The notes beneath the pieces were generated by a model that saw only the letters and a list, made by a program, of their open reading frames with translations, was not told the origin of the DNA and did not search any database. A stretch of DNA of 64,000 nt from an uncultured Gammaproteobacteria bacterium (GTDB taxonomy: Bacteria; Patescibacteriota; Microgenomatia; Woykebacterales; RBG-16-39-9b), in contig CAYIWY010000001.1 in assembly GCA_964367355.1 (NCBI GenBank), positions 35,307-99,306 on the forward strand, written 5' to 3'. The first letter of the stretch is position 1. Every line of letters starts with the position of its first letter. The translations under genes were made by a program, and so were the position numbers. Shown here piece after piece: positions 992-54,067 of the stretch.

Positions 992-1132
992 AATTTACGT
1001 AAGGTTAGAAAAGAACAGAAGGAAGCGAGGGATTTTTTGGTACCTAAAACCTCAACACTATAAGACATAGTATTGAGATTCTAGAAACCACCAGAAGTGC
1101 GGTTCTCTAGCGGTTCAAGGAGGTTTGTCCCC

Positions 1133-1321
1133 GTGAAGACAGTCAATGGCGTGCGCTACCCGACCCCGAGCGCTTCGGCCCAAGCAGCATTCAGGGCTCA
1201 GGTTCGGCAATCGTCGGCGTCCACTCGGCTCCCGAATCTCGGTAGGTTCGGTCGGGTCGAGATCGTGCGCAGCGCAGAGGACATCCGGTCCCTTCGCGAC
1301 GACGGTCACCGGCACCAGTAG
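1133..1321 (+). CDS. possible small GC-rich protein (62 aa), uncertain
   Basis: Strong SD AAGGAGG lies 8 nt upstream of GTG 1133. GC3 is much higher than GC1/2, consistent with real coding in GC-rich DNA. However, random ORFs of this length are common in 65% GC sequence. Confidence 0.25.
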   Translation: MKTVNGVRYPTPSASAQAAFRAQVRQSSASTRLPNLGRFGRVEIVRSAEDIRSLRDDGHRHQ

Positions 1322-1780
1322 TTCTCACAGACACGCAGCCATGAGGGGGAGTTTGACTAGGCGAAAGCTGAAAATCAAACTCCCCCACCAGAAATAGTGG
1401 AGGTGACTTGGTACAAATTTAGCCATAACCCGAGATGGCGCAAACATAAGGGACGGCTCGGTATCAGTGCAAAATAAGCACGAAACCGTCCCCTAAATTC
1501 TAATCACTACGAACTTGGCTGGAGAGAGGTTCAAAGGGAGGTGAATATTATTTTACCCTCTTACTTTCAGCCAAATTCGTGAGGATTAGGTTCATTTCAA
1601 GAAAGGATTTCATTTTGGCCTAGTCGGCGCCCTTTGACAATTTAAAGCAATCAGGAAACCGAGCAGTCCAGCTCGTCACCCACTTTAGGTGGTAGTGAAA
1701 CACATTTTTGTGTGTAGCCAGGCAGAGAAGGACACCTTGAACTCTGCTTGAAGACAGTTTAGTAGTACGGAGGAATATCG
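1322..1780 (+). other. GC-rich, highly structured non-coding leader or candidate ncRNA upstream of the zinc-ribbon gene
   Basis: There is a perfect 12-bp inverted repeat GGGGGAGTTTGA..TCAAACTCCCCC at 1343-1384. A 7-bp stem GGGACGG..CCGTCCC sits around 1449-1496 with a nested GTGC..GCAC hairpin. An imperfect long stem GGCTGGAGAGAGG..CCTCTTACTTTCAGCC follows. No credible ORF is present. The stretch ends at the GGAGGA SD for the 1781 gene. Confidence 0.35.
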
Positions 1781-2617
1781 ATGTCACGCAAGCCCAGTAA
1801 GTCCCCGGCAAATGGAACTCCGGAAGCTGCGGATCTGTCCGCCGCCGATCCGAAGGACGGAAATGCTGACACCAGCGTCGCCGTCGCCACCCAGGACCCG
1901 CAGGCTGCGGAGGACGTCAACGCTCGCGAGTGCGAGTTCTGCGCCATGGTCATGCCAGCGGATTCCAAGGACCCGGCCTGCCCAATGTGCTTCCGGGACA
2001 ATCGGTTGTACATCATGCTCCGGTTCCTGGCGGCGAAGGGGCAGACGTACTGCAACGCCGTCCACGATGGCAAGCGCTGCGAATACGTACTGAACATGAG
2101 GTCGGACGGCAAGGACGTCTTCTGCCCCATGGACAAGGCGGATCGGGCGATCTTTGCGGCCGAGCGAAAGCTCCGCGAAGAGGCACCGACAACGGAAGCG
2201 CAGGCCAAGCTCGCTGAGGCGAAGGGCTTCTTCAACGGTGGGGACGACTGGAAAGCGCTCAAGGCGGCCAATCAGGTCTTCGATCTGCAGGCCAAACCCT
2301 TCGTCGAGGAGGGGCTTTCCAACCTGGTCGAGGCCGAACTCGGCCCGCTGGCACGTGCTGCTTACGATGAGGCTGTCAGCTTCGTCGAGCACGGCCAGTA
2401 CGTCCGCGCCAGCGAGTGCGTCGTGAGCATGAAGAACATCATGCCGCGCGAGCGCATGCTCATCGCCCATGGCGAGCGCCTGTCGAAGACCGATCAGCAG
2501 CGGCGGCAGCGGACCCACAGTCCTGACGTCGAGGACAACCTCGGCAGGATCAAGGGTTTCCAGCAGCGAGTCGCTTCTCACGCTCACGCCGGCAACGACG
2601 AGGACGGCGAAAACTAG
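1781..2617 (+). CDS. hypothetical Ala/Glu-rich protein with an N-terminal multi-Cys zinc-ribbon-like motif (CEFC..CPMC..C..C); GC-rich, likely foreign
   Basis: SD GGAGGA lies 7 nt upstream of the ATG. Cys pairs CxxC and CxxC are 12 aa apart, with three further Cys. The long antisense ORF 1784-2587 is a GC-artifact. Confidence 0.6.
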   Translation: MSRKPSKSPANGTPEAADLSAADPKDGNADTSVAVATQDPQAAEDVNARECEFCAMVMPADSKDPACPMCFRDNRLYIMLRFLAAKGQTYCNAVHDGKRCEYVLNMRSDGKDVFCPMDKADRAIFAAERKLREEAPTTEAQAKLAEAKGFFNGGDDWKALKAANQVFDLQAKPFVEEGLSNLVEAELGPLARAAYDEAVSFVEHGQYVRASECVVSMKNIMPRERMLIAHGERLSKTDQQRRQRTHSPDVEDNLGRIKGFQQRVASHAHAGNDEDGEN

Positions 2618-4342: not shown

Positions 4343-5128
4343 TTAATTTGAAAGAAGGAAAGCTTCAGTGAAACGAGAAGTCCACCAACCAGTAGCGATG
4401 TTATCAAAACCAAGATCGATCTTGTTACCCTTAATGCTACCTCCAGTATCGCCGGCAATAGCGATCCCGTAGCCAGGTACATAAACCTTACTGCGAAGTG
4501 GGATTACTTTCGGATCCACGGCAATAACACCATAACCAGCCTTCATACCAATAGAAGTCGTATCGTTGCAACCACGACAGTTGGCATCGTAGGAGGTTGC
4601 CCAAACAGTGAGGGAAGTTTTATATTTAATTATTCCGTAAGGTGTCTCAAGAGTTTTTTCTTCAGGGTCAAGTCCAACTGCAATAATTTCCTCAATCGGT
4701 TTTTTCTCAGCAATTAAAATATTTTCCCTGGAAAACTCCTGATTTTGGTGGAAAACAATTTTTGTTTGAACAGTTTTTTCACCGCTCGTGCCTTGCTGAA
4801 TTATCTTTGTTTCACCAGGCTTCAACAGTGGATCCACGGTCGTCTTTTTTTGGAATTTAAGTTTCTGGGTGTGGGTGGTTATTTTTTCGCTAAAGAGAGA
4901 CTCTGTGTTTGGTTGCTTTGGGGAAGAAAGATTAACAATTTGAGCTCCCGGGATAAAGGCAAAGCTTAATTTTGGGAAAATTGTTTCATAAAACACGAAA
5001 ACCAAAAGCAAAAAAATAATACCTGCGGATTTGTAGGAGAGTCGGGACAGGAAGAGTGAACCAAACCCTCCAACTGTAGAGTCAACATAAGCTAGCCTGC
5101 CTGCCACAAACTGCTTAACAATATTCAT
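4343..5128 (-). CDS. cell-wall associated protein with G5-like and 3D (MltA-like) domains
   Basis: N-terminal TM segment. A middle G5-like segment reads KPGETKIIQQGTSGEKTV. The C-terminal 3D domain reads WATSYDANCRGCNDTTSIGMKAGYGVIAVDPKVIPLRSKVYVPGYGIAIAGDTGGSIKGNKIDL. Confidence 0.55.
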   Translation of the reverse strand: MNIVKQFVAGRLAYVDSTVGGFGSLFLSRLSYKSAGIIFLLLVFVFYETIFPKLSFAFIPGAQIVNLSSPKQPNTESLFSEKITTHTQKLKFQKKTTVDPLLKPGETKIIQQGTSGEKTVQTKIVFHQNQEFSRENILIAEKKPIEEIIAVGLDPEEKTLETPYGIIKYKTSLTVWATSYDANCRGCNDTTSIGMKAGYGVIAVDPKVIPLRSKVYVPGYGIAIAGDTGGSIKGNKIDLGFDNIATGWWTSRFTEAFLLSN

Positions 5129-5181: not shown

Positions 5182-7026
5182 TTAATAACGAATGGAAATT
5201 AATAATTTTTCCGGGATATCAAGGACAAAACGGGACAGGACTCCTTCGGTACGGGTACCAAAGTAGAGTCGGCTTTGGGTATAAGTCATATAAAGTTGCT
5301 TCTCGGCGCGGGTAATACCGACATAACACAACCTGCGCTCCTCTTCGACACCAGAGGTATCGGTGAGAGATTGGCTATGGGGAAATAGACCCTCTTCCAT
5401 ACCAATCATAAAAACAATTGGAAATTCTAGCCCCTTGGCGGAATGTAAGGTCATCAAGGTAATGGCATCTTTTTTATCCTGATTTTGAACAGCTCTATTT
5501 GGCAGGTATTCTTTTTCGACCAAGGAAACGTTCTCCAAAAAATCAACAATTTCTGGGAATTCACTTGCAACTGAGCGAAGTTCTTTAACATTTTCGATTC
5601 GCCCGAGCGATTCTTCAGAGTTGTCATCAAGATAATTTAAATATTTTGTCTCAGCCAAAATTAAGTCAACAATGTCGATAGTTTTTAAACCTTCTGATTT
5701 TTGCCGAACGATTTCAAAAGAACTTTTGAAATCTAAAACCTTCTGATTGGTTTGGTCAAGTAAAGCCTTGGGACCGATGCCGCGTGGTGGTGTGTTGACG
5801 ACCCGTTTAAAACTTAAGCTATCGCTTGGATTGTTAATAAAGCGAAGATAAGCAACGATATCACGGATTTCCTTACGGTCGTAAAATCTAGTCCCCCCAA
5901 CCAAAACGTACGGCAAACCTTCACGCAACAGCGCCTCTTCCATTACCCGACTTTGGGCATTGGTTCGGTAAAGAACAGCAAAACTAGCCAAGGAAAAACC
6001 TTGGGAAGATGAAAGCAGCTTTTGGATTGTCCGGATGATAAACTCAGCTTCCTCGACTTCGTTTTTGGCCTCGTACAAAATTGTCGGAACTCCTTCATCA
6101 TTTTCCGTCCAAAGTTCAAGTATTGGATGAGAGCGGTTTTGATTGATAACATTTTGAGCCGCACCTAAAATATTTTTGGTTGAGCGGTAATTTTGGGAAA
6201 GGTTGATGGTTTCAACATCGGGAAAATCTTTGGAAAAATTAAGAATATTTTTATAGTCAGCTCCGCGCCAACCATAGATTGCTTGGGATGCATCGCCAAC
6301 CACACAAATGTTTTTGTGTTTAGAAGCGATTATTTTGGTTAATATATATTGGGCTTTGTTGGTATCTTGATATTCGTCAACCAAAACATATTTAAAACGG
6401 TTTTGGTATTTCTTCGCAACTTCTGGAAACTTTTCAAAAAGCACTACGACTTGCATCAAAAGATCGTCGAAATCCAAAGCGTGATTTTCCTTCAGTGATT
6501 CTTGGTAACGAAAATAAACTTTGGCAACAATTTCTTGAAAATAACCGCGGGCAAAGCCTTGATATTCGGTTGGTCCGATAAGTTCGTTTTTTGCCGAAGA
6601 AATCGAGTTTTTTATTGAATAAGGAGAAGTACTTTTCGGATCGAGATCAAGTTCTTTCAAAATTTCTTTGATCAAATCCAAACTGTCAGAGTCATCATAA
6701 ATAACAAACCTTGGACTGATTCCAAGATTTACTCCGTCGCTACGCAGAATACGAGCGCAGATTGAGTGGAAAGTTCCCATCCAAAGTGGCGTAGTTGAAA
6801 CTAACTTCTTTAAGCGCTCTTTCATTTCACCAGCAGCTTTGTTGGTAAATGTTACCGCTAGGATTTCTTCAGGGAGAGCTAATTTTTGTTCCAAAATGTA
6901 CGCAATCCGGTGAGTGATAACCCTGGTTTTTCCACTACCTGGACCAGAAAGAACCAAGAGCGGACCTTTTGTTTTCTTAACTGCTCTTTGTTGATCGACA
7001 TTTAATCCTTCTAAAAGTTTTTCCAT
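5182..7026 (-). CDS. uvrD: UvrD/PcrA-family ATP-dependent DNA helicase
   Basis: Walker A GPGSGKT, VLVDEYQD (motif II), and overall UvrD motifs. The likely start is MEKLLEGLN at 7026; the ORF-track start at 7107 adds 27 non-conserved residues. Confidence 0.85.
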   Translation of the reverse strand: MEKLLEGLNVDQQRAVKKTKGPLLVLSGPGSGKTRVITHRIAYILEQKLALPEEILAVTFTNKAAGEMKERLKKLVSTTPLWMGTFHSICARILRSDGVNLGISPRFVIYDDSDSLDLIKEILKELDLDPKSTSPYSIKNSISSAKNELIGPTEYQGFARGYFQEIVAKVYFRYQESLKENHALDFDDLLMQVVVLFEKFPEVAKKYQNRFKYVLVDEYQDTNKAQYILTKIIASKHKNICVVGDASQAIYGWRGADYKNILNFSKDFPDVETINLSQNYRSTKNILGAAQNVINQNRSHPILELWTENDEGVPTILYEAKNEVEEAEFIIRTIQKLLSSSQGFSLASFAVLYRTNAQSRVMEEALLREGLPYVLVGGTRFYDRKEIRDIVAYLRFINNPSDSLSFKRVVNTPPRGIGPKALLDQTNQKVLDFKSSFEIVRQKSEGLKTIDIVDLILAETKYLNYLDDNSEESLGRIENVKELRSVASEFPEIVDFLENVSLVEKEYLPNRAVQNQDKKDAITLMTLHSAKGLEFPIVFMIGMEEGLFPHSQSLTDTSGVEEERRLCYVGITRAEKQLYMTYTQSRLYFGTRTEGVLSRFVLDIPEKLLISIRY

Positions 7027-7043
7027 TTTGAAGTTATTATATT

Positions 7044-7117
7044 GCTCTTGCGATTCAAGAATCGAGCGGTATGCTCGCGAGATGATTATAGCGCTCTTGC
7101 GATACAAGAATCGAGCG
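7044..7117. promoter_or_regulatory. two 25-bp direct repeats (7044-7068 and 7093-7117), each with a palindromic core CGATTCAAGAATCG, in the divergent uvrD/trxA intergenic region; candidate operator pair
   Basis: GCTCTTGCGATTCAAGAATCGAGCG and GCTCTTGCGATACAAGAATCGAGCG differ at one position and lie 49 bp apart centre-to-centre. The palindrome arms CGATTC/GAATCG are seen directly. Confidence 0.45.
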
Positions 7118-9112: not shown

Positions 9113-9819
9113 AACCAATAATTGTCGCTAACTGGAAAGCAAATAAAAATATTCAGGAAACAATCGACTTTGTTAACCTAACTAAGAGTAGTCTTGAAGA
9201 AGCAAAAAATACACAGGTGGTCCTTTGTCCGCCATTCACCTCACTATCTACATTAGCAGTTTTATTAACGGACTCTTCCGTAAAAGTCGGAGCACAAGAT
9301 GTTTCCGACCATTTAGAAGGAGCATATACAGGCGAAGTGGCCGCATCAATGTTAAGCGGATTAGTGACACACTGTATTGTGGGTCATTCTGAGAGGCGAC
9401 GTTACTACAGCGAAAAAGAAGAGCAGGTGGGTGAAAAAGTAAAAAATCTAGTTGAGCGGAATATTACACCAATACTTTGTATAAGTGACATCAACCAAAT
9501 GGATAATTATTTAGCAGCTAGTGATAGTTTTAAGCAAAACGCTAGTAAAATTGTTTTTGTTTATGAGCCACCAAGTGCAATTAGTGGTGGTGGGGACTAT
9601 CATCCGGAAAGTCCGGGAGAAGCTTCCACAAACGCCGCTAAGATTAGTGAAAAAATCGGAGCAAGTGTAGTAACCTTATATGGTGGGTCGGTTAGTGACG
9701 CTGATGTTGATCAGTTTTTAACTGAAAAAAATATCAATGGGGTTTTGGTTGGTAAGGCGAGTTTGAGTGCGAAAACATTCATCAGTTTGGTTCAGAAAGC
9801 CAATAATCTCGTGTTATAA
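9109..9819 (+). CDS. tpiA: triosephosphate isomerase
   Basis: IVANWKAN and VGHSERR motifs. Overlaps the NUDIX gene by 4 nt (operon). Confidence 0.9.
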   Translation: MKPIIVANWKANKNIQETIDFVNLTKSSLEEAKNTQVVLCPPFTSLSTLAVLLTDSSVKVGAQDVSDHLEGAYTGEVAASMLSGLVTHCIVGHSERRRYYSEKEEQVGEKVKNLVERNITPILCISDINQMDNYLAASDSFKQNASKIVFVYEPPSAISGGGDYHPESPGEASTNAAKISEKIGASVVTLYGGSVSDADVDQFLTEKNINGVLVGKASLSAKTFISLVQKANNLVL

Positions 9820-23899: not shown

Positions 23900-23979
23900 G
23901 TGGTGTATAATGTATAGTGTATAACGCGCTGATAATTTATTTCAGAGAAACAGGCGCGCGATATTTGTCGAGGACGAAA

Positions 23980-24258
23980 ATGAAAAGAAAACAAATATAC
24001 CTTACTGAAACCTTAGATCGAGAAATTGGAGAATTGGCGAAAAAGGAAAATAAACCACAAGCTGTGGTTATTCGTCAGCTTCTAGAAAACAGTATTCAGA
24101 AAAAATTGAGTAGTGGGGAATTCCTATTGAAGTTGGCTAAATATGCAGTTCCTGGACCAGGTGATCTGTCTACCAACCTCGATCGTTACCTCTATGGAGA
24201 TTTGTCTCCTAATTATGGCCATCTCTACCGAAAAAAGAAAAATTCTAATAGACGCTGA
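23980..24258 (+). CDS. ribbon-helix-helix (CopG/VapB-like) antitoxin
   Basis: MKRKQIYLTETLDREIGELAKKENKPQAVVIRQLLE is an RHH pattern. Overlaps the downstream PIN gene. Confidence 0.55.
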   Translation: MKRKQIYLTETLDREIGELAKKENKPQAVVIRQLLENSIQKKLSSGEFLLKLAKYAVPGPGDLSTNLDRYLYGDLSPNYGHLYRKKKNSNRR

Positions 24259-24676
24259 TGCTTTTATTGGGTTGATCTACGCAAAGGATGCAAACCATCA
24301 ATTTGCAAGTAAAATAGTTGAGTTACTAACAGATGTCCAGCTGATTACTTCAAGTCATGCTTACGGTGAGGCAATTACGATACTCAGCCAAAAAGCTGGT
24401 CGAAATGTAGCATTTAAGTTTATCTACGATATAGGTAGAAGTTCTACCCAAATTATAGATGTTGGTTTTGCCCTGCGATTGGCCGCGGAGAAAATTTTCA
24501 AACGACAAACTTCTAAGAACGTCTCTTTCACCGATTGTGTCAATATGGCGATTCTTGAAAAGTTTGGTTTAAGAGAAATTTTTAGTTTTGATTCAGACTA
24601 CAAGAAGAATGGGTTTGTACGAGTTGGTGTTGATAAAAAGCTTGAAGGGGAGGTGGTTAACGAGGAAAAGAAGTAA
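24215..24676 (+). CDS. vapC: PIN-domain toxin (VapC-like)
   Basis: ILIDADAFIGL (first acidic residue) and SFTDCVNMAIL..IFSFDSD (C-terminal acidic residues). The ORF-track start at 24143 is probably too early. Confidence 0.65.
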   Translation: MAISTEKRKILIDADAFIGLIYAKDANHQFASKIVELLTDVQLITSSHAYGEAITILSQKAGRNVAFKFIYDIGRSSTQIIDVGFALRLAAEKIFKRQTSKNVSFTDCVNMAILEKFGLREIFSFDSDYKKNGFVRVGVDKKLEGEVVNEEKK

Positions 24677-24912
24677 TGAACATTGATGTAAACAAACTAA
24701 GTGCATTTTACGTTGAGCTTTGTGAAAAGCAAAAACCAGAAAAACCTTACTATTGTGAAACACAAGAGCTTAAAGGTTTCGGAACGGTAAGCTCGGGTAC
24801 TATTGTCCATCAACAGACAACGGTTATTGTTGGCACTGTTGGAACTTCGGCCGTCACTATAAATCCTAACTTGTATTATTCCATAGGTACTATAGTAAAG
24901 AATGAGTTATGA
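24676..24912 (+). CDS. hypothetical small protein
   Basis: 78-aa ORF in an operon-like arrangement. Confidence 0.3.
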   Translation: MNIDVNKLSAFYVELCEKQKPEKPYYCETQELKGFGTVSSGTIVHQQTTVIVGTVGTSAVTINPNLYYSIGTIVKNEL

Positions 24913-26068: not shown

Positions 26069-26124
26069 ATTGACCCTAGTGGTATAATAAATTCCCATAT
26101 TTTGCGAAGGAAGGAGGTGAATAA

Positions 26125-28338: not shown

Positions 28339-28346
28339 TCATCGTT

Positions 28347-29434: not shown

Positions 29435-30800
29435 ACACCCGGCCTCTTTTCGTGATCCAAGTGGTTTTATATTTCACTCCAAGATTGGACTACTTCGCCA
29501 AATAAACGCTTCTTACCAGAAAAACTACGAAAAACTTATTAGTAGTGGTTTATTCCAAAAATTAGTTACAGAAGGTTTGTTGGTGGATCACAAAGAAGTT
29601 GATCTCAAGCAGTTCTCCCAAAGTAGTGAAGCTTACAAAATTATCCAGCCACAAAAAATTGATTTTATTTCGTATCTCTATGAGTGGAGTTTTGGGCAGT
29701 TGCAAGATGCAGCTCTTCTGACCCTAAAAATCCAAAAAATCGCTTTGGAATTTGGAATGAGTTTAAAAGATGCTAGTGCTTACAACATTCAATTTTTTCA
29801 AGGCAAGCCGATTCTTATCGACACCCTGTCTTTTGAAATTCACAAAACTGATCAACCTTGGGTGGCTTATCGTCAGTTTTGTCAACATTTTTTGGCCCCA
29901 CTGGTTTTAATGTCTTATCTTGACCCGAGACTTTTAAGATTAAATCAGCTTTTTATTGACGGAATACCGTTAGATTTGGCAGCCAAACTTTTGCCTTTTA
30001 AATCAAAACTCAATTTCAATTTATTTCTACACTTACATTTACACGCCTCAAGTCAGAAAAAACATTCCGTCAAAAACAGAAAAATCATAAGAAAAGCTAG
30101 TTTTAGCATGAATTCTTTTATGGGTTTGATCACAAGTTTGGAAAGTAGCATCAAAGGCTTGAAATGGCAACCAAAAGGAACAGAATGGGCGGATTATTAT
30201 GAAGCTAACAATAATTATGAAAAAGCATTGAGTCAAAAAGAAAAGCTGGTTGATGAGTTTTTGAAAGTAGCCAAACCGACTTCAGTCTGGGATTTGGGAG
30301 CTAACACTGGACTTTTTAGCAGATTATCAGCTGACAAAAAAATTTCAACAATATCATTTGATATCGATTTAGAGGCAGTTGAGCTAAATTACAAAGCCGT
30401 TAAGGAACAAGAAGAAAAATTTTTACTGCCGCTTTTTTTGGATTTGACCAACCCTCCTCCAGCCATTGGTTGGAAAAATCAAGAAAGAGAGTCGCTAGTT
30501 GAGCGTGGGCCAGTCGATACAGTCCTTGCTTTAGCTTTGGTTCACCATCTAGTGATCTCAAACAACTTGCCTCTTGAAGAACTGCGTGATTTTTTTGCCA
30601 GTATTTGTTCAAAATTAATTATCGAATTTGTTCCCAAGAGTGATTCACAAGTTAAAAAACTTCTTTCAACCAGAGAGGATATTTTTCAGAATTACGAGCA
30701 AAAAAGTTTTGAAAATATTTTCCGCGAAAAATTCAAAATAGCTAAATCTAGATTAATCCCGAAAACAAAAAGAACACTTTATTTGATGATAAAAATTTAA
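29424..30800 (+). CDS. FkbM-family-like methyltransferase
   Basis: VWDLGANTGLFS is a DxGANxGxxS motif. SD AAGGGGA precedes the ATG at 29424. Confidence 0.5.
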   Translation: MASRHPASFRDPSGFIFHSKIGLLRQINASYQKNYEKLISSGLFQKLVTEGLLVDHKEVDLKQFSQSSEAYKIIQPQKIDFISYLYEWSFGQLQDAALLTLKIQKIALEFGMSLKDASAYNIQFFQGKPILIDTLSFEIHKTDQPWVAYRQFCQHFLAPLVLMSYLDPRLLRLNQLFIDGIPLDLAAKLLPFKSKLNFNLFLHLHLHASSQKKHSVKNRKIIRKASFSMNSFMGLITSLESSIKGLKWQPKGTEWADYYEANNNYEKALSQKEKLVDEFLKVAKPTSVWDLGANTGLFSRLSADKKISTISFDIDLEAVELNYKAVKEQEEKFLLPLFLDLTNPPPAIGWKNQERESLVERGPVDTVLALALVHHLVISNNLPLEELRDFFASICSKLIIEFVPKSDSQVKKLLSTREDIFQNYEQKSFENIFREKFKIAKSRLIPKTKRTLYLMIKI

Positions 30801-30887
30801 CTTTTTAAAAGTTAGTCAGGGAATTTCTCAAATGAACCTCCGAGGGTTAAAACCATTGGTTTCATCTGAGAAGCTTCGTTTTTGATG

Positions 30888-30929
30888 ACAAAAATAAAAA
30901 AGGGTGATAAGGAGAAATTCCCCATCACC
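30888..30929 (-). terminator. Rho-independent terminator for acpP
   Basis: GGGTGATAAGGAGAAATTCCCCATCACCC hairpin with a minus-strand T-run. Confidence 0.6.
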
Positions 30930-30938
30930 CCTACGAGA

Positions 30939-31202
30939 TTACCCATCCTTTATCCCGATTCCTTTTAGATAATCGATCGCGTCCTGAACAGTGAAGATCC
31001 TTTCAGCAGCCTCAATTGCGATTTCAAAGGTCTTTCCGTCTTGGAGAGGGAACTCTTCTTCCACTGTCATTATGAGTTCAACCAGGTCAAGACTATCGGC
31101 GTTGAGGTCGTCAACGAATGATGCGCTGGGAACAACTTGGTCTTCTTCAACTCCAAGTTGGTCGACAACGATCTTGCGAACCCTTTCGAAAACTGTTGCC
31201 AT
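30939..31202 (-). CDS. acpP: acyl carrier protein
   Basis: [19 protein letters not shown] with the canonical DSL Ser. 87 aa. Confidence 0.85.
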
Positions 31203-31378
31203 AAATCTCTCCTAACTAAGTGGCTCTTTTCTTGGTTTGAATTTTAACACACCTAGCAAAATTTGATAACCTGTAGTAAAGGGCTGGCAATAAAAGATGT
31301 TTTCTGCTAGAATTGTCTACTAACTATGGCTAAAAAAGACTTAGATTTTCTTAAAGCGCAAGATTTTGGAGGAACGTA

Positions 31379-31516
31379 GTGACGAAAAAAGATTATCATG
31401 AGGTTTTAGGCGTTGCAAAAAGCGCCTCGGACGAAGAAATAGACTGCTCGTATTCTGTGCCTTTGATGATTACATCAAAGCCGAATACTGTGCATTCTGC
31501 AAACACTTTGTGTTAG
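31379..31516 (+). pseudogene. truncated DnaJ J-domain remnant (45 aa) immediately upstream of dnaJ
   Basis: SD GGAGGA then GTG. MTKKDYHEVLGVAKSASDEEI matches the J-domain N-terminal consensus ([26 protein letters not shown]). The frame then diverges and stops before the HPD motif. Confidence 0.45.
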
Positions 31517-33196: not shown

Positions 33197-33261
33197 TTTT
33201 ATTGCTTGCTTGAAGTCTTGTCAAGATAGTCTTGACCAAGAAACCTTTTGGTGGTATAGTG
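33197..33261. promoter_or_regulatory. bidirectional promoter built on a near-perfect palindrome TTGTCAAGAtagTCTTGACca
   Basis: Minus strand: TTGACA, 17 bp, TAAAAT (33225 down to 33197), driving the tRNA operon. Plus strand: TTGACC (33233-33238), 17 bp, TATAGT (33256-33261). Confidence 0.55.
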
Positions 33262-33279
33262 CAAGAAAGTTTAATTAGA
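33218..33279 (+). repeat. 62-bp direct repeat copy A (promoter/operator segment); copy B is at 33905-33966
   Basis: CTTGTCAAGATAGTCTTGACCAAGAAACCTTTTGGTGGTATAGTGCAAGAAAGTTTAATTAG is about 87% identical to copy B. Confidence 0.85.
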
Positions 33280-33283
33280 TGGT

Positions 33284-33321
33284 TTTTAAAAAAAGACGGG
33301 TCTACTTAGTAAAACCCGTCT
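33284..33321 (-). terminator. Rho-independent terminator of the 33329-33784 gene
   Basis: GACGGGT..ACCCGTC hairpin followed by a T-run on the minus strand (plus-strand AAAAAAA at 33289-33295). Confidence 0.65.
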
Positions 33322-33328
33322 CGTGTGT

Positions 33329-33784
33329 TCAGCCACCACCGCGCTCAGATAGCTCAGCAGCAATTCTCTCCAACCTCTCTTGCTCCGGACACTCATGAAG
33401 CAAATATGCGATTCGAAGAACCCGCTCGGCTTCAATTTCGTCGCAGAGAAATTCAGCAAACAGGCATCCTAGAGGAGGCATCCTTTCGAATAGATGAGAA
33501 TCTGCAGCGAAGTACACCACTGCAATTTCCAGATCTTCAGCAGTTCTTAACCATCCTGAAAGAAGCCTTTTGATCTCGGTTCGATCAAGTTCAAGAATTC
33601 TCTTTAGGACGGTTTGTGACTCTTCCGGTAACTCACCTTCGACCATAAGCTCTAATTGCTCATAATCGAAAAGAGTGCCAATAAGACCACTCATCTGTGT
33701 TTGGTGAACAGTAAGTTTGTATCCCAGAACCCGGCTTTTCTTAAATTCGTTCTCGGCTAAAATTCTATCCTTTATACCGGGCAT
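33329..33784 (-). CDS. hypothetical protein, GC-rich (island C), lodged between duplicated promoter copies
   Basis: 151-aa ORF with higher GC than its flanks. Carries its own terminator. No recognisable motifs. Confidence 0.5.
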   Translation of the reverse strand: MPGIKDRILAENEFKKSRVLGYKLTVHQTQMSGLIGTLFDYEQLELMVEGELPEESQTVLKRILELDRTEIKRLLSGWLRTAEDLEIAVVYFAADSHLFERMPPLGCLFAEFLCDEIEAERVLRIAYLLHECPEQERLERIAAELSERGGG

Positions 33785-33904
33785 AGATCTCCTCCTTACT
33801 TAAGAACCTAAGTAAAGTAATTTTAACAGAGCATAAGGTAAAGTCAATACTATGGGGCTAAAATATATTGAAAATAGGTAAGGTGTGGTGATTCTAGCGA
33901 GCTA

Positions 33905-33966
33905 CTTGTCAAGATAGTCTTGACCAAAAAACCTCTTGGTGGTATATTGCAGCTAAAGTTAATTAG
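33905..33966 (+). repeat. 62-bp direct repeat copy B, containing the nusA promoter TTGACC, 17 bp, TATATT (33920-33948)
   Basis: CTTGTCAAGATAGTCTTGACCAAAAAACCTCTTGGTGGTATATTGCAGCTAAAGTTAATTAG. It is followed by two hairpin plus T-run elements (GTGGGAATAAAATCCCAC-TTTTTT; CTTTGCgaaGCAAAG-TATACTTTTTT) in the nusA leader. Confidence 0.8.
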
Positions 33967-46147: not shown

Positions 46148-46438
46148 ATGGATACTGCCACCTTTTTTACCATCGTCACGATTTTAATTGCCCTGATTTT
46201 GTCAGCAGTTGGCGCTTATCTGGTTTTAGTCCTCCACGAAGCTCGTACATCACTTAAAAGATTAAATCGCATTTTGACCCGAGCAGATAAATTAGCTGAA
46301 TTTGTTGATGATAAAATCGCCCGACCCAGCGCAAATTTCGCCTCAATATTTGGATTATTGAATGAAGGTTTACAGTTTTTTAAAGACCTAAAAAGAACAG
46401 TTAGAAAAACTACGGATGAGGAAACAAGAAATGAGTGA
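46148..46438 (+). CDS. small membrane protein
   Basis: Single TM followed by a coiled region. Confidence 0.35.
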   Translation: MDTATFFTIVTILIALILSAVGAYLVLVLHEARTSLKRLNRILTRADKLAEFVDDKIARPSANFASIFGLLNEGLQFFKDLKRTVRKTTDEETRNE

Positions 46439-48875: not shown

Positions 48876-48928
48876 AGGACTTAGGTAAAAACAATTTAAA
48901 TCCAAATTCTTTCCCAATAGACACACAC

Positions 48929-48958
48929 TTGACAGAAACTATAGGACTGTAGTATATT
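48929..48958 (+). promoter_or_regulatory. AT-rich sigma70-like promoter TTGACA, 18 bp, TATATT, facing GC-rich island D
   Basis: Seen directly. The GC jump begins at about 48966. Confidence 0.5.
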
Positions 48959-49005
48959 GTTGCGCGCCAGCCTATAATCCATTTCGATAAAGAAAGGAAC
49001 TGCCC

Positions 49006-49788
49006 ATGGTTACTGCCACAGCCGCAAAGAACGGCGCATCTGCCGAACCTGTGACATCGCGCCGCGACACTCGCGCCAGCAAGGTTTCGGCGGTCAAGAC
49101 AGAGCAATCGTCCAAGTCCAACACGGGTTGGATGCACGTCAGGATTCACTGTGTCGGGCGCACCCCCCTGCTGATGGATCCCATGACTGATGGGACCATC
49201 GAGGAGCTGGAAACTGGGGTTCGCAAGCCGATCAACAAGCAACTGACGCGTTACCAGGTCTGCGAACCCAAAGTCATGCACAATGCTGCTGGCTTGATCG
49301 CGGTCCCCATCGACAACTTCTTCGCCTGCACTGTCGAGGCCGGCCGGAGAATCCCGTTTCAGAAGATGAGCAAGATGAGTACGGCTACCAGCACGACTTT
49401 GCCGGAGTACTTCCGCTTCATCTCGGAGGATCTGGTACTACTCGACAATAAGGGTAAGCCACTGCCGGACTGGGACGGGAAGTCGAAGAACGGCAGCTGG
49501 AGCGTCGATGTGCGCCGTGGTTGTCTCAAGGATGGCACGGCTGTGCCGATCCGGCGGCCGAAGTTCGACCACTGGGAATTCGATGTCGAGTTCGAGTATG
49601 ACATGGGAGTCATCTCGGACCAGAAGCTTCTCGATCTGATCAAGATCGCCGGCACGACCATGGGGCTGTGCAGCTTCCGGCCGAACAAGAAGGGTCGCTT
49701 TGGCACCTTTGCGATGACGCGCTGGGAAGAGATCGCTCGCCGTGAACAGGATACCGAGGTTGAGATAGTCAGGTTGAAGGCCGCGTAA
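49006..49788 (+). CDS. hypothetical protein (island D gene 1), GC-rich; possible glycine-rich loop near the C-terminus
   Basis: SD AAAGGAA. 260 aa. Low-complexity N-terminus. C-terminal GTTMGLCSFRPNKKGRFGTF is loosely reminiscent of a RAMP/Cas6 G-rich loop; this is speculative. Confidence 0.55.
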   Translation: MVTATAAKNGASAEPVTSRRDTRASKVSAVKTEQSSKSNTGWMHVRIHCVGRTPLLMDPMTDGTIEELETGVRKPINKQLTRYQVCEPKVMHNAAGLIAVPIDNFFACTVEAGRRIPFQKMSKMSTATSTTLPEYFRFISEDLVLLDNKGKPLPDWDGKSKNGSWSVDVRRGCLKDGTAVPIRRPKFDHWEFDVEFEYDMGVISDQKLLDLIKIAGTTMGLCSFRPNKKGRFGTFAMTRWEEIARREQDTEVEIVRLKAA

Positions 49789-49847
49789 CAACAAAGGGTG
49801 ACGTACAGTACGTTTCGTTAGGTTGGCACAACTGCACTGTCGTCATT

Positions 49848-49899
49848 TGCACTACAGGGTGGGGAACTAGGAGTCAACTTCTTTTTCCCCACCAAAACT
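49848..49899 (+). terminator. hairpin GGGTGGGGAA..TTCCCCACC plus T-run after gene 1; its 5' arm resembles the array-unit head
   Basis: CAGGGTGGGG is shared with unit R10. Followed by AAAACTCTTTTTTGG. Confidence 0.5.
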
Positions 49900-50042
49900 C
49901 TTTTTTGGTGGTTTGGTATCGGAATAAATTTCGTTACTAGAGCATCAAAACAAATACTTGGAGAAGATCAATCCAGAGTTGGGCCAAGCATTGTGGACAT
50001 ACCTGCCCTTTCGTCTACTGCTGCCCACTCCGCTGCGTCATG

Positions 50043-51304
50043 GGGCTGGATCCGATTATCGCAAGACGATCGGATCTGCCGACACTAACTACCTCGGCGT
50101 TGATGAGTGCGTTTCACTGACGTGAACTGCTTTGCACTTTAATGCGCTCGAGTTAAGTAGAGGGCTGGGGATCCGGAGAGAAATCAAAGGATCTCTGCCA
50201 ACCTTTTGTTTTCAAGTAGCCTGGGGCGGACTTCATAACAGTGGAGTTTCCTGGGGTCACCTGCAGGGCTGGGTTCCGAGAGGAAACAATCGGAACCTGC
50301 CACCTTGTTGACGGACTAAGCTGACGTTCAGTGTCGAACCGTTCGGTTCAGCACGCTCACGTGCGTCAGGTTTTAGTGGGGTGCAGGGCTGGGGGTTTCC
50401 TTGGGAAACTAGGGAAACCTCTGCCAACCAATGTTCGGTGCGCAGTTACCTCTCGTATTGATCGCCTTCCTGCTGTTGGCTACTCTGTCGTTTGGTGACC
50501 TGCTGTAATCTGAAGGGCTGGGTCCGTTTACAGAAATGTATCGGACTTGCCAAATTTGTGGTCTAGGGTGCGGTTTGGTTAACTCCACTAGCGTGCGGAA
50601 AACTGGCCTACACCTAACTGACGTCAGGGGCTGAGGACCCGGAGAGAAATCAAAGGGTCTTTGCCAACAAACTCAATTCGTTCCCCTGCTGTGAAGATGG
50701 CTTAACTTCAGTTAAGTTCTCCTTACTTACGTGGGGTATCGTGGAGTATGGGGCTGGGGATTTGCTCTGGAGAAATCTATTCAAGTCCCTGCCAACAACT
50801 TAAGTTGAACTTAGCTGCAGCTGACTTCTGTTCGCTGGGCTATTGTTACGTGCAGGGCTGGGTCCGTTTACAGAAATGTATCGGACCTGCCAAACCAATT
50901 TTGATGAATTGATTCTGAAAACATAAATTTCAAAACCAGCTCATCAGGGTTTTGAGAGAGTTATCAAGTGCGCTAGACCACTGTTCCCTAAAGCACCCAA
51001 GGGTTCAGCCCACTTTCGTGGTCTTCGCAATGGTACTGGGCTGGGGACCCGGAGAGAAATCAAAGGGTCTCTGCCAAAACGCTTTCAACTTAGGTACTGT
51101 ACCCCGTTCTTCGGTAAACAGTCCTGTCGCATTGTTTAGGGCTGGGGAGTTGGTTAACTTTGGTTTTCTAACTCCCTGCCAACCGAATTAGATTTTCGAG
51201 GGGTAGTGTTGTGTATGGCAGCGTCATGCTCCGTCTGCTTCAGTACACCAGGTTGCCCCATAGTTCAGGACTGCCCCCGATGTTTCGAAAGAATTATCGG
51301 GGGT
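50043..51304 (+). repeat. array I of structured repeat units with the pattern CAGGGCTGGG, variable hairpin, CTGCCAAC (11 units)
   Basis: Units: 50043-50083, 50162-50202, 50266-50304, 50386-50428, 50515-50554, 50628-50668, 50751-50796, 50855-50894, 51038-51080, 51138-51182, plus a degenerate unit at 51261-51304. Stems of 5-7 bp covary (GATCC/GGATC against GACCC/GGGTC; GTCCG/CGGAC; GGATCTG/CAGATCC; GGTTTCC/GGAAACC). Loops usually contain AGAAAT. Inter-unit segments are unique and 60-184 bp long. There is no ORF. Confidence 0.85.
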
Positions 51305-51365
51305 GTCATTTTTCAATATTTACCTAAAAAATTCTGTCCCATTTTGTAACAAGGCACTTTAACAA

Positions 51366-53213
51366 GTGACAAATAGTAAAGGAGAGGGGACAACAGTGCC
51401 TTCATCGCAACATCGTGGTAGGCCTTCTTTCGAGGAGCTTACCTCCGCCTGGCCAAGGCGGCGACTTGGACCCATGTGGTCCGAACAAGAAGAAGCCTTT
51501 GAGGTCATTGCCAAACATGGCAGTTGTACCTTGGAGGTACCGACTGGTATGGGCAAAACCGCTATCGGTTACACGACGCTCAAGGCGTTGGGCAACCGTG
51601 GTGAAGGCCCACTTTTCTACATCGTGCCGACCAAAACTTTGGTTGGACAGGTAGCTGAGATGTTTCCAGACGTCACTCCGGCCTATGGTCGGAATGAGTT
51701 TGATTGTCTCTACTACGACGAGCCGTACAAAGCGGACGAAGTCCCTTGCCTGCTATTGCAGGACTGTGTCCATCGGGTCGATCAAGAGACTGGCCGGACT
51801 GCTGGTCGAGGAGCAGAACGTTGCCCCTACTACCACGCCAAGTACCAAGCCAAACGCGATCCGAGTCGGATCGTAGTCTGCTCGATGTCGTTTTACCTTT
51901 TCACCCAGCTTTTCTCCAAGGAGTTTGAGAATCCAGCTGGTTTGGTGATCGACGAAGTTCAGCAGATGCCAGATGTGGTCCGTAATGCTCTGTCTTTTGA
52001 CATCACGGACTATCAGTTGCAACGGGCGATCAACCTACTGTCAACCACAGCTGCGGATGAAGCTGCTGGTCTCGAGATCTTTCTCGATACTATGTTGCGG
52101 ATCATTCGACTCAAGCCTTCGAAGGTGCCGGTAATGCTCGAAGATGTCGAGTTGCAGGAACTGCTGTTGGTCTTGCGAGATATTGACCGCGATGGTCTGC
52201 GTCGCAAGATCGCCGAGGGTATCCGCTCGGGCGACATTGATGTCGTCAAAGAGCGAGAAGTCCTGACCAAAGTTGAGCGACTGGTCTATGACCTGTACCG
52301 TTACGTGCGAGCGTTTGAATTTTCGCTCAGCAACGAAACACAACGGCCACTCAACTACACCTACGCAGTTTGGGACAAAGAACCAGCTGAGGGCAAAAAG
52401 GTCCACAACAAGCTGACCGTCAAGTCCTACTACGTCGCGCCGGTGATCAAGAAACTGCTGTCAGCCAATCTGACAGTGAGTTTGGGAGCGACTATCGGCG
52501 ACCCGAACGTGTTTGGTTACGAGTCAGGGATCGATCCGAGGCGAACGCCGATGTTCACTTTTGACTCGAGTTTTCCGGTCGGCAACACCCGGATCTACGT
52601 TCCGTCGGACTCCTTTAGCTTGGCGGAAAAAGAGGTCAAAAATCGTGGTAAAGCCACAATGGTCCGTCGGATGGTTCGCTCGGCCAAAACCTTCAACCAA
52701 AAAGGTGAGCGCGTGTTGTGCTTGGTCGTCTCTGACACCGAGCGGCAGCGCTTTATTCGGATGGCCACTGAAGACGATGTCAACTTCATCACTTACGGTG
52801 ATGGCGTGACCGCGCGCGAAGCTGCGGACCGCTTCCGTGCCGGAGAGGGTAAAGTCCTGCTTGGGACAGACGCCCAGTACGGCCAGGGTGTTGACCTGCC
52901 AGACGGTATCTGTCGGGTGATCTTCTACCTGCGACCCGGTTATCCGCGACCAGATGATCCTCAGACCCAGTTTGAGGAAAAGCGTTTTCGCTCACAGAAG
53001 TGGGCAATCTGGCAGTGGCGACTGATCATGAAGGCGATGCAGGTGCGCGGTCGTAACATCCGTGGTCCGGAAGACAGGGGAGTGACGATTTTCTTCGACA
53101 GCCGTTTCCGGCGTTTCCTTTTCGGAGGGATGCCCAAGTGGCTCCAGCCGTCATATCGTGGAGATCTGACACTGCAAGAGTGCATTGAGGACGCGCTCAA
53201 GGTGTTGAAGTAG
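51366..53213 (+). CDS. Rad3/XPD/DinG-family SF2 helicase with an Fe-S domain (island D gene 2)
   Basis: Walker A TGMGKT. Four Cys lie between motifs I and II (CLYY, PCLLL, DCVHR, ERCPYY). Motif II is VIDEVQQM (a DEAH-like DEVQ). The C-terminal LLGTDAQYGQGVDLPDG and QVRGRNIRGPEDRGVTIFFDSR match DinG motifs V/VI. An alternative start GTG 51396 has SD AAGGAGAGGGG. Confidence 0.8.
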   Translation: MTNSKGEGTTVPSSQHRGRPSFEELTSAWPRRRLGPMWSEQEEAFEVIAKHGSCTLEVPTGMGKTAIGYTTLKALGNRGEGPLFYIVPTKTLVGQVAEMFPDVTPAYGRNEFDCLYYDEPYKADEVPCLLLQDCVHRVDQETGRTAGRGAERCPYYHAKYQAKRDPSRIVVCSMSFYLFTQLFSKEFENPAGLVIDEVQQMPDVVRNALSFDITDYQLQRAINLLSTTAADEAAGLEIFLDTMLRIIRLKPSKVPVMLEDVELQELLLVLRDIDRDGLRRKIAEGIRSGDIDVVKEREVLTKVERLVYDLYRYVRAFEFSLSNETQRPLNYTYAVWDKEPAEGKKVHNKLTVKSYYVAPVIKKLLSANLTVSLGATIGDPNVFGYESGIDPRRTPMFTFDSSFPVGNTRIYVPSDSFSLAEKEVKNRGKATMVRRMVRSAKTFNQKGERVLCLVVSDTERQRFIRMATEDDVNFITYGDGVTAREAADRFRAGEGKVLLGTDAQYGQGVDLPDGICRVIFYLRPGYPRPDDPQTQFEEKRFRSQKWAIWQWRLIMKAMQVRGRNIRGPEDRGVTIFFDSRFRRFLFGGMPKWLQPSYRGDLTLQECIEDALKVLK

Positions 53214-53287
53214 AGAGTCAACCTGTGGCCTAGTCAAGTTAACCGAGCTGTTCTGTGGTGACTTGATGTCGGCTATTCAATTGCACA

Positions 53288-53882
53288 GGGTGGGGATCTG
53301 CTCTGGAGAAATCTATCCAGATCCCTGCCATTTTCTTTTTTCAACGAGTGCAGTTAGGCAGACAATGTCATTGTCCTGTTTACCTAACTGGTGTTCGCTG
53401 CAGGGCTGCCTCGATAAAACCGAAAGGATTTATCGGGGCGCCATTCTTTTGATAGTTTAATTTTGGAAATATTTTCAAAACTAGCCTATCAAAGAAAAAC
53501 GATATGGTATTCTTTTGTCGACGCGGCGGTCTTCAGTTCGCTAGCCCATGCTGCCGTTCGGTAGAGTCGGGAACGCTAGAGAGTACTGAACCGCAGTATG
53601 GGGCTGGGAACCTGCTCTGAGTAATCATCAGGTTCCTGCCAACGTTCACTTTCGTGCGGTTCAACAGCGTAGGGACTCGCCAACTGTGGTAAAGTTCTCT
53701 ATTGTAGTGTTAACCGCGCTGGTCTAAAGGGCTGGGGATCTGCTCTGGAGAAATCTATCCAGATCCCTGCCAATTTCACAAACTGACTCAAGCAGGGCCA
53801 TGTCCACAGGAGTTAGGTGGCCTGCGCTTTTGTCTAGTTTAGGGCTGGGTCCGATTTCAGAAATGTTTTCGGACCTGCCAAC
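53288..53882 (+). repeat. array II of the same structured repeat units downstream of the helicase (5 units)
   Basis: Units: 53288-53331 (ends CTGCCAT), a degenerate unit at 53403-53444 (similar to 51261-51304), 53601-53643, 53729-53774, 53842-53882. Units 50751-50796, 53288-53331 and 53729-53774 form one family. Units 50515-50554, 50855-50894 and 53842-53882 form another. Confidence 0.85.
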
Positions 53883-54067
53883 TCAATTTCGGCGGGATTC
53901 AAGTTTTTATTAACTTGGTCCCGCTTTTTCTTTTACCAAATTTTGTTTCGAGATTGAAAATGGTATTATAATAAGAGACGATCTGCCAAGATACCGCGTT
54001 AAATGTAATTTAGATAAATTAAGAACTATTTTATGCGCGCGATATTTCGTCATCTAAAACTGCCAAA

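Follow-up and report, generated by a model that had tools for sequence, protein, structure and literature searches.

What is a GC-rich block with about 2.2 kb of non-coding DNA doing between two housekeeping genes of a low-GC bacterial chromosome? The question is raised by a 64,000-nt stretch of contig CAYIWY010000001.1 (forward strand, positions 35,307 to 99,306; hereafter the window), which is part of the European Nucleotide Archive (ENA) contig Hain_H52_01um_R1_16 (186,945 bp, coverage 10.5) from the 0.1-µm fraction of a Hainich groundwater metagenome. The host is a Patescibacteria (candidate phyla radiation, CPR) bacterium, whose closest relatives by alanyl-tRNA synthetase (AlaRS) are Patescibacteria metagenome-assembled genomes at 75% identity, followed by Candidatus Woykebacteria at 59–61%. 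An earlier note on this DNA had singled out four GC-rich segments, here called islands 1 to 4; the remainder of the window is core chromosome (murJ, lepA, hrcA-grpE-dnaK, dnaJ, nusA, infB, pnp, RNase J, ftsK, alaS, rpoB and three tRNAs). Island 4, which spans about 48929–53928 between alaS (end 48875) and the next host gene (54068), is very probably a chromosomally fixed Viral Interference Programmable Repeat (VIPR) system, comprising a Vipr protein of the RAMP type, an XPD/Rad3-like iron-sulfur (Fe-S) helicase and 17 genes for guide RNAs (vrRNAs). This identity, which the earlier note had missed, is built on homology, fold, repeat code, tail structure, synteny, presence and absence in relatives, and assembly integrity.

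VIPR systems are of a kind first described in 2026. They consist of a vipr gene, usually one vap gene, and vrRNAs of ~100 nt, each made of 9–16 YNNGG repeats (with NNNGG, YNNNG and NNNNG variants) followed by a conserved structured 3' tail (bioRxiv 10.64898/2026.04.26.720920). Types III–V carry nuclease or helicase vap genes, III and V being the nuclease types; 25.5% of VIPR loci are chromosomal, and ribozyme-interspersed arrays have been described for type I and type V loci (10.64898/2026.04.26.720920). In the system of the Escherichia phage SUSP1 (type II), one Vipr protomer per repeat sequesters GGY while NN pairs with DNA, skipping every third base, and an R-loop triplex forms that leads to transcriptional silencing (10.64898/2026.04.26.720920, 10.64898/2026.04.26.720927). 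The structure of SUSP1 Vipr shows that D177 reads G1 and that W178 stacks on G2 (10.64898/2026.04.26.720927). The sequence-level features that define such a system, namely a RAMP homologue, pentamer tracts, a structured tail and a minimal locus, are all present in island 4, and the locus adds a further member with variant features to this kind.

The Vipr protein of the window comprises 260 amino acids (aa), with a core spanning residues ~42–246 and a basic, low-confidence N-terminal stretch of ~40 residues. It matched nothing in Pfam, NCBIfam or PADLOC, and only three near homologues were retrieved by a word-indexed search. A three-sequence profile, in turn, was run against 1.84 billion representatives and recovered 3270 relatives at E ≤ 1e-3, and phrog_4652 was matched by the window Vipr and by all 92 sampled family members. 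When a profile of these 92 sequences was used, exactly one solved structure was matched, PDB 36pp_D, annotated as 'SUSP1 Vipr protein' (E 2.9e-12), in an alignment that includes the C-terminal G-loop (SFRPNKKGRFGTF in the window, DWRP--RFGRF in SUSP1). An AlphaFold2 model built from the 92-sequence alignment (pLDDT 90.3) found its best PDB folds with Foldseek in the Csm3/Cas7 backbone subunits 6ifn_F and 7uzw_B (E about 1e-6, best 6e-7; probability 1.0), and the best viral models in BFVD were RAMP-like, one of them annotated as a Cas-associated RAMP. Across the 92 homologues R184 and G233 are invariant, and R225, P226, G230, F232 and F235 are nearly so. The SUSP1 residues D177 and W178 align with S223 and F224 of the window protein, a replacement that fits the relaxed RNA positions of its guides, in which G1 has given way to a weak purine preference and G2 to G or C. 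The vipr gene family is mainly phage-borne.

The guide RNAs themselves carry a distinctive code. The 60–90 nt upstream of each recurring hairpin in island 4 form a pentamer run in fixed register with that hairpin, and the 17 tracts hold 10–17 in-phase pentamers each (two with phase slips). Position 1 of the pentamer is T in 76% of cases and C in a further 15%, positions 2–4 are mixed, and position 5 is G or C in 95%, so that the consensus, a YNNNG-like variant, can be written Y-N-N-(r)-S or T-N-N-N-G/C. All 116 of the 116 plus-strand positions that score at least 18/24 for this period-5 pattern in the 64-kb window lie inside island 4 (window mean 8.3, sd 2.4), and in the arrays, but not in the helicase coding sequence, the autocorrelation of T has peaks at lags of 5 and 10. 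Islands 1–3 were searched for a period-5 signal or VIPR-like hairpins, and none was found. On the minus strand, two stretches outside the islands (5020–5050 and 46390–46420) reach 18–19/24 on the period-5 T/S score; no VIPR-type hairpin adjoins them, and they probably reflect coding-sequence periodicity or chance.

The hairpins that close the tracts are 36–43 nt long, all lie on the plus strand, are spaced 100–130 nt apart and follow the plan GGC-U-GGG(stem-loop-stem)CC-UGCC-AAC. Their base is invariant (GGC/GCC plus a bulged U), and their upper stem varies from copy to copy yet stays paired. When 31 copies, taken from the window and from two related loci, were aligned, 97.6% of the cells proved to be paired and 7 of 11 pairs showed compensatory changes; the alignment contains 65 double-change cells versus 16 in shuffles, a value as high as this was reached by 0 of 500 shuffles, and every slid register was far worse. 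At gathering and E-value thresholds, Rfam returned only three tRNAs and chance miRNA matches in islands 1 and 4, and the vrRNAs are not in Rfam 15. No match to island 4 was found by blastn in phage and plasmid collections. Other structured or repeat-bearing elements were also considered: integron attC sites were rejected since the ends lack the RYYYAAC/GTTRRRY pattern, a tRNA-like array since ARAGORN made no call at the island 4 repeats, TIGR-Tas for lack of a Nop-domain protein, and a retron or diversity-generating retroelement for lack of a reverse transcriptase.

Only two protein genes are present in island 4, and no match to cas, integrase or transposase genes, no CRISPR array and no cas1/cas2 were found in the window (Table 1). 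The count of 17 vrRNA genes includes one unit directly after vipr and two variant tails that double as terminators; in one of these, vrRNA 11, the variant tail is followed by a T-run and would thus serve as terminator just upstream of the helicase gene. The motif ATAAATTTC..A.CAGC.CATCA recurs at 49924, 50923 and 53473, in AT-rich segments in which the GC content drops. Together with the T-run terminators, these AT-rich segments with their shared motif suggest that the vrRNA genes are arranged in about five transcription units around the two protein genes.

Table 1. Coordinates of features in islands 1 to 4 of the window
Feature	Coordinates	Strand	Remarks
vipr promoter	48929-48958	+	TTGACA-18-TATATT; consensus scan 11/12
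vipr	49006-49788	+	260-aa Vipr RAMP protein
vrRNA 0	49808-49892	+	10 pentamers; tail hairpin 49858-49892, GGUGGGG...CCCCACC; pentamer parse
Terminator-like site after vrRNA 0	49889-49911	+	
AT-rich leader	49912-49968	+	putative promoter of first vrRNA array; uncalled by consensus scan
vrRNA 1	49969-50081	+	15 pentamers; tail 50044-50081
vrRNA 2	50088-50200	+	15 pentamers; tail 50163-50200
vrRNA 3	50207-50302	+	12 pentamers; tail 50267-50302
vrRNA 4	50306-50426	+	phase slips within the repeat tract; tail 50387-50426; identity of about 86% to a unit of locus L016
vrRNA 5	50436-50552	+	16 pentamers; tail 50516-50552
vrRNA 6	50554-50666	+	15 pentamers; tail 50629-50666
vrRNA 7	50677-50794	+	15 pentamers; tail 50752-50794
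vrRNA 8	50801-50892	+	11 pentamers; tail 50856-50892
AT-rich leader before vrRNA 9	50896-50960	+	
vrRNA 9	50964-51076	+	15 pentamers; tail 51039-51076
vrRNA 10	51085-51181	+	11 pentamers; tail 51140-51181
vrRNA 11	51190-51312	+	variant tail GACUGCCCCCGAU...AUCGGGGGUGUCA (51269-51307), then T-run; pentamer score 19/24
Helicase (vap candidate)	51396-53213	+	605 aa; alternative GTG start 51366
vrRNA 12	53219-53330	+	14 pentamers; tail 53289-53330
vrRNA 13	53340-53447	+	variant tail GGCUGCCUCGAU...AUCGGGGCGCCA (53404-53443), then T-run; terminator type
AT-rich leader before vrRNA 14	53447-53510	+	
vrRNA 14	53522-53641	+	16 pentamers; tail 53602-53641
vrRNA 15	53645-53772	+	17 pentamers; tail 53730-53772
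vrRNA 16	53783-53880	+	12 pentamers; tail 53843-53880; 92% identical to last unit of L016
Closing terminator hairpin	53890-53928	+	GGCGGGAUUCAAG...CUUGGUCCCGC, then T-run; near-identical hairpin closes the island of locus L018
Island 4, GC-rich segment	48960-53900		GC 52.3%; z = 12
Island 1, GC-rich segment	1097-2820		GC 56.8%; z = 9.6; local peaks 0.62-0.66
Island 1 promoter	963-991	+	TTGACA-17-TATACT, TG-extended; consensus scan 11/12
62-aa GC-rich ORF	1133-1321	+	GTG start after AGGAGG ribosome-binding site; no homologues found, no Pfam match
Terminator-like hairpin after 62-aa ORF	about 1340-1390		
278-aa orphan ORF	1781-2617	+	GC 63%; GC3 0.81; own terminator
Island 2, segment	26100-28375		GC 45.8%; z = 4.3; mild
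Island 2 ORF	26125-26502	+	
Island 2 ORF	26601-26876	-	
Island 2 ORF	26886-27488	-	
Island 2 ORF	27557-27955	-	
Island 2 ORF	28069-28338	+	
Island 3, segment	33284-33904		GC 42.5%; z = 1.2; indistinguishable from background
Island 3, insertion	33217-33966		688-bp insertion
Island 3 orphan gene	33329-33784	-	151 aa

The second protein gene, a candidate vap gene, encodes a superfamily 2 helicase of the XPD/Rad3/DinG family (Pfam Helicase_C_2, DEAD, ResIII and DEAD_2) that is syntenic with vipr in the three related loci L016, L018 and L101. Its best PHROG match is phrog_2488, a phage DNA helicase (1.8e-38). When a four-sequence profile of the helicase was compared with the PDB, human and archaeal XPD came first (E 3e-17 to 2e-14), followed by CHL1, FANCJ and then E. 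coli DinG (5e-10), and no chain named CasDinG appeared at E ≤ 1e-3. Residues C104, C118, C124 and C143, located at the XPD Fe-S-cluster region, are invariant in the alignment, which suggests that the Fe-S domain is intact. Since the locus has a helicase as its only accessory gene and types III and V are nuclease types, the system would fit VIPR type IV best.

A comparison with SUSP1 reveals the extent of both the resemblance and the variation. Both systems have one accessory gene and one small RAMP protein, which contains an RRM core and a G-loop. In both, the guides of ~100 nt consist of tandem pentanucleotide repeats and end in a structured 3' tail that is conserved, the vrRNA genes lie downstream of the protein genes as well as between them, and a CRISPR array and cas1/cas2 are lacking. 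The repeat, however, is T-N-N-(r)-S in the window versus YNNGG in SUSP1, with S and F in place of D177 and W178; the tail in the window is a simple hairpin with a bulge, whose base is conserved and whose upper stem covaries, whereas that of SUSP1 is a pseudoknot; and the window encodes 17 vrRNAs versus 4. The accessory protein is an XPD-like Fe-S helicase instead of a DNA-binding protein, and the locus resides between housekeeping genes of a bacterial (CPR) chromosome, not in a phage. A further point of comparison is the type IV-A CRISPR-Cas system (Csf1-Csf2-Csf3-Cas6 plus CasDinG), in which an RNA-guided RAMP filament is likewise combined with a 5'-3' helicase of the DinG/XPD family and no nuclease; as in type IV-A, the window system probably acts on mobile elements by interference without cleavage. 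Unlike type IV-A, it has no CRISPR array, adaptation genes, Cas5, Cas6 or large subunit, its guide would follow a gapped pentamer code, and its helicase keeps the Fe-S cysteines and is closer to XPD by profile. With the Cas7 backbone proteins Csm3 and Cmr4, Vipr shares the fold and the G-rich loop, but at 9–14% identity, as a single RRM without elaborations, with a 5-nt instead of a 6-nt periodicity and without Cas subunits as partners.

The window, L016, L018 and L101 are the four loci in which vipr, vrRNA genes and the helicase gene were found together. In L016, an ENA contig from another sample, the flanks are 92% nucleotide-identical to those of the window and the island occupies the same site; the two flanking proteins are 98% identical, and Vipr and the helicase are 53% and 69% identical, respectively. 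A sliding comparison gives 93–100% identity outside the island and 45–70% inside, with sharp edges. The vipr promoter and 5' untranslated region (48928–49027) retain 84% identity, and the coding sequence after it about 50–68%. A few vrRNA units of L016 are conserved at 78–92%, and the rest are unalignable with the window. The more distant L018 (AlaRS 75% identical) holds a minimal island at the same site, with vipr at 31% and the helicase at 59% identity, a single vrRNA with the same tail and the same closing terminator. In L019, L080 and four more distant Patescibacteria (two labelled Woykebacteria), alaS is followed directly by the next host gene, with no island. Overall, island 4 is accessory, anciently acquired and fast-evolving, and its guide repertoire turns over. 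A 92%-identical strain together with distant relatives offers a rare view of how such a locus evolves, with fast-changing proteins and guide gain and loss between frozen flanks.

The fourth locus, L101 (JGI Ga0209542_10011793, 55% GC), encodes the same vipr-helicase pair (35% and 46% identical, respectively) with a similar tail base, GCUGGGG...CCCCGC, and is of the ribozyme-interspersed kind. Hammerhead type III ribozymes were detected at 6741–6795, 7021–7073 and 9127–9181 (E 8.6e-6 to 6e-3), the first two directly 3' of vrRNA tails, consistent with a ribozyme-processed array type with one hammerhead per vrRNA. In contrast, no hammerhead was found in the window at E ≤ 1. The vrRNA units of the window abut without a hammerhead, and their processing must therefore rely on something else.

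Some further observations concern these relatives and the surroundings of island 4. An inverted duplication of ~130 bp that contains a vrRNA tail is present in L016 (4970–5100 and 6868–6997), where the vipr-plus-array segment is inverted relative to the helicase gene when compared with the window; this inversion may reflect either a segment that truly inverts or a fold-back artefact of assembly at the end of the contig. A short ENA contig, L100, encodes at 1157–1879 a Vipr homologue of 37% identity with a GC content at third codon positions (GC3) of 0.76 versus 0.49 in the neighbouring gene, and GC-rich vipr genes in lower-GC surroundings may be recurrent. The host genes downstream of island 4, 54068–55030 (320 aa) and 55030–56517 (495 aa), are conserved and syntenic in Patescibacteria relatives. 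The 320-aa protein has no Pfam match and a genome-contig search with it found nothing; the 495-aa protein has a marginal Baseplate_J-like match (E 1e-4).

Several other explanations of island 4 have to be weighed against a VIPR system. It could be read as a degenerate or minimal type IV-like CRISPR-Cas locus, with the hairpins as repeats, the 60–90-nt stretches between them as spacers, and the two proteins as Cas7/Csf2 and CasDinG. The Cas7-like fold of the 260-aa protein, the array-like appearance of the interspaced hairpins, and the best defence-database match of the helicase, PADLOC typeIV_DinG (PDLC01439, E 3e-44, full length), with weak matches to two other Csf4 PADLOC models (5e-6 and 1e-4), all speak for it. 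However, the supposed spacers are period-5 repeats in fixed register to the hairpin, the supposed repeats differ by compensatory stem changes and are not homogenised, neither cas1/cas2 nor Csf1, Csf3 or Cas6 was found, and the sequence homology of the 260-aa protein is to Vipr. CasDinG is described as having only a vestigial Fe-S domain, whereas the helicase of the window has four invariant Fe-S-type cysteines and is closest to XPD. This CRISPR reading of the locus is thus extremely unlikely. An artefact of assembly, the alternative raised by the earlier note, would join GC-rich metagenome fragments of other organisms to a low-GC contig, and both the metagenomic source of the window and the abrupt composition shift at the island edges invite this suspicion. 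Nevertheless, independent Logan assemblies of at least five other runs reproduce the two junctions of island 1 and the left one of island 4 at 100% identity, in contigs that carry the host/GC-rich junctions at 100% identity over 2–14 kb. The Logan contigs end at 50543, the site of a recurring 44-bp repeat, and this coincidence indicates a repeat break and not a composition break. Two indel-rich ENA contigs of low coverage (~1x) run from 48981 to beyond 59900 and cover island 4 with its right junction. In addition, the diverged strain L016 and the more distant L018 hold a homologous island between the same host genes, and two sister genomes, L105 and L107, hold a GC-rich gene at the island 1 site. 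Because the junctions are reproduced base for base in independent assemblies, a chimeric assembly is excluded, and its probability is practically nil.

The remaining alternative takes all four segments as unrelated recent imports from several high-GC donors whose composition they still reflect. Each segment was compared with same-size background windows (the background outside the four segments has 39.0% GC), and the 500-bp GC profile, with a background of about 0.35–0.43, shows two strong excursions, at 1001–2800 (0.53–0.63) and 49001–54000 (0.47–0.58). Consequently, of the earlier claim of four islands at 50–65% GC, islands 1 and 4 remain, and islands 2 and 3 fall short of that range (Table 1). 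The GC3 of the island 1 and island 4 genes (0.81 in the 278-aa open reading frame (ORF) of island 1, 0.755 in vipr, 0.62 in the helicase gene) is a classic foreign-gene signature when set against the 0.29–0.34 of the host genes alaS, rpoB, ftsK and pnp. The absence of island 4 from some relatives and the presence of the vipr-helicase pair on the 55% GC contig L101 likewise favour recent import. On the other hand, the ORFs of islands 2 and 3 have GC3 values of 0.40–0.51, and both islands are at or near host composition, also in tetranucleotide usage (r = 0.73 and 0.54 versus host, respectively). Islands 1 and 4 are alike in their coding parts (r = 0.53–0.64), which do not resemble the host (r = -0.32 to 0.06), and the view that the islands differ from one another in composition is true only in part. 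L105 and L107, recognized through the adjacent FemAB protein (83% and 78% identical to that of the window), keep the position and architecture of island 1 in equally GC-rich genes, and the right-end terminator of island 4 is common to L018. Four independent imports from multiple donors are therefore very unlikely, and these results indicate that islands 1 and 4 either are old residents or have had their alleles replaced repeatedly at fixed sites. Horizontal acquisition as such is supported for island 4, given its presence or absence at the same site in the relatives examined and a family that is mainly phage-borne.

The claim that a canonical AT-rich promoter precedes each segment stands for islands 1 and 4, with 11/12 consensus matches each, and is weaker for the other two. 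Before the first ORF of island 2 there is no canonical -35/-10 pair, only a TGnTATAAT extended -10 at 26080–26088 discernible by eye. The gene of island 3 lies on the minus strand with its own promoter (33847–33820), and the plus-strand sequence at 33232–33260 is a duplicated copy of the nusA promoter. As had been stated previously, there is neither an integrase nor a transposase: no such Pfam matches occur in the island ORFs or elsewhere in the window. Regarding the classical marks of integrative islands, no integrase was found in any of the four, and tRNA adjacency and direct repeats (62-bp) only at island 3.

For the VIPR system of island 4, the mode of action known from SUSP1 suggests a working model. 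One Vipr protomer would bind each pentamer of an expressed vrRNA and sequester the conserved S-T bases, and the variable dinucleotides would remain exposed in the resulting ribonucleoprotein filament, which could then read double-stranded DNA by a gapped code (two bases paired, one skipped) and form an R-loop triplex. The displaced strand may provide the loading site for the 5'-3' XPD-like helicase, whose role would be to go beyond simple binding or silencing and actively disrupt how competing phages or mobile elements, the presumed targets, replicate or are transcribed. The locus would have been acquired by the ancestor of the sub-lineage, most likely from a higher-GC phage or other mobile element, and would now be engaged in an arms race that drives fast protein divergence and the gain and loss of guide units.

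Several points temper this account. Targets were sought with the NN-skip code in the window, in 1.35 Mb of related loci and in IMG/VR, and the matches extended at chance level only: with eleven read-position/skip combinations in the window and six in the 1.35 Mb of loci, the observed maxima equalled those of shuffled controls, and the nine 16-base seed matches of one IMG/VR scan also extended at chance level, a result that speaks neither for nor against guide-directed binding of DNA. These searches applied to Y-N-N-N-S repeats a pairing rule assumed from the GGY/NN type. Expression and processing of the 17 vrRNA units are predictions drawn from their sequence. The connection of the helicase to CasDinG comes from one PADLOC model, and solved structures place XPD closest. 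Finally, a higher-GC donor alone does not explain why GC3 stays at 0.6–0.8 in long-diverged lineages. Islands 1 and 4 keep their high GC3 in lineages that separated long enough ago for synonymous sites to have reached equilibrium, and either repeated replacement of alleles out of a mobile gene pool rich in GC or a selection or mutation bias for GC may be responsible. Such a very high GC3 at two fast-evolving loci is an observation worth following.

A bolder proposal, which we regard as rather unlikely, would make island 4 a VIPR subtype that its host has domesticated and that operates in the manner of a type IV CRISPR system without a nuclease, the RAMP filament producing the R-loop onto which the 5'-3' Fe-S helicase is loaded. 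It would further involve an undescribed mechanism of guide diversification or cassette exchange, and whatever process maintains a GC3 of 0.6–0.9 in a 39% GC genome may act on the orphan gene of island 1 as well. Guide turnover is apparent from units that are 80–92% conserved next to others that are unalignable, between flanks that are 93–100% identical.

VIPR represents a minimal form of RNA-guided DNA recognition that possibly predates CRISPR, and the window provides a well-resolved natural example of it, with 17 guides, ribozyme-free hairpin tails and a relaxed T-N-N-N-S repeat matched by substitutions in the G-loop. Equally noteworthy are the XPD-like Fe-S helicase partner and the fixation of the locus between housekeeping genes of an ultra-small CPR bacterium. 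For genome scanning, the locus illustrates that structured guide-RNA arrays can lie concealed in what looks like a GC-rich island of a low-GC genome, and that period-5 composition combined with a recurring hairpin constitutes a cheap detector of them.

Island 1 is a separate orphan locus that is conserved in position, hyperdivergent and persistently GC-rich. Its 62-aa ORF has GC contents of 0.66/0.54/0.75 by codon position, and about 380 nt of unassigned sequence separate the hairpin after this ORF from the 278-aa ORF. In the 278-aa protein the N-terminus is basic and disordered, a Cys-rich segment resembles a zinc ribbon, the C-terminal half is helical and the tail is acidic; the protein has no match in Pfam, PHROG, PADLOC, NCBIfam or the PDB, and the one homologue found in the databases is a copy full of errors that stems from the same population. 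The counterparts at the same position in L105 and L107 encode 378 and 366 aa, have 64–65% GC with a GC3 of 0.82–0.88, and have the same layout, in which a basic, disordered N-terminus that begins M-x-R/K-K-P is combined with a Cys-rich segment, a helical region and an acidic tail. Their identity to the 278-aa protein is just 21–23%, and a neighbouring 141-aa gene is 75% and 52% identical, respectively. Since sister genomes whose housekeeping proteins are about 20% diverged hold an equally GC-rich counterpart at the same position, island 1 is not a one-off recent import. Beside island 1, a UvrD-PDDEXK helicase-nuclease comprises 982 aa in the window strain and in L107, and 1341 aa with Hint/intein-splicing matches in L105 (6620–10645); an intein thus seems to be confined to a single lineage.

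Islands 2 and 3, both near host composition, are small accessory insertions of an ordinary kind that carry orphan genes. The orphan gene of island 3 lies between 62-bp direct repeats (33217–33278 and 33905–33966, 87% identical) that duplicate the nusA promoter (TTGACC-17-TATAGT and TATATT), and the island adjoins a tRNA-Thr/Val/Ala cluster. Island 2 consists of five small orphan ORFs of 43–53% GC, each with its own promoter or terminator, within an accessory-gene stretch that separates dnaK from dnaJ. This stretch of about 7.6 kb (23917–31500), located between hrcA-grpE-dnaK and dnaJ, also encodes a ribbon-helix-helix protein, an isochorismatase-like protein, a GDSL lipase, a HAD hydrolase and a 472-aa orphan. 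The adjacent minus-strand ORFs 26601–26876 and 26886–27488 of island 2 have a common C-terminal motif, …D-T-I-Q-Q-V-V…, and the longer one shows a weak match to acyl carrier proteins (NCBIfam E 1.2e-5, below cutoff) and appears to be without the usual DSL serine. The two ORFs may encode paralogous small proteins of the acyl-carrier-protein-like kind.

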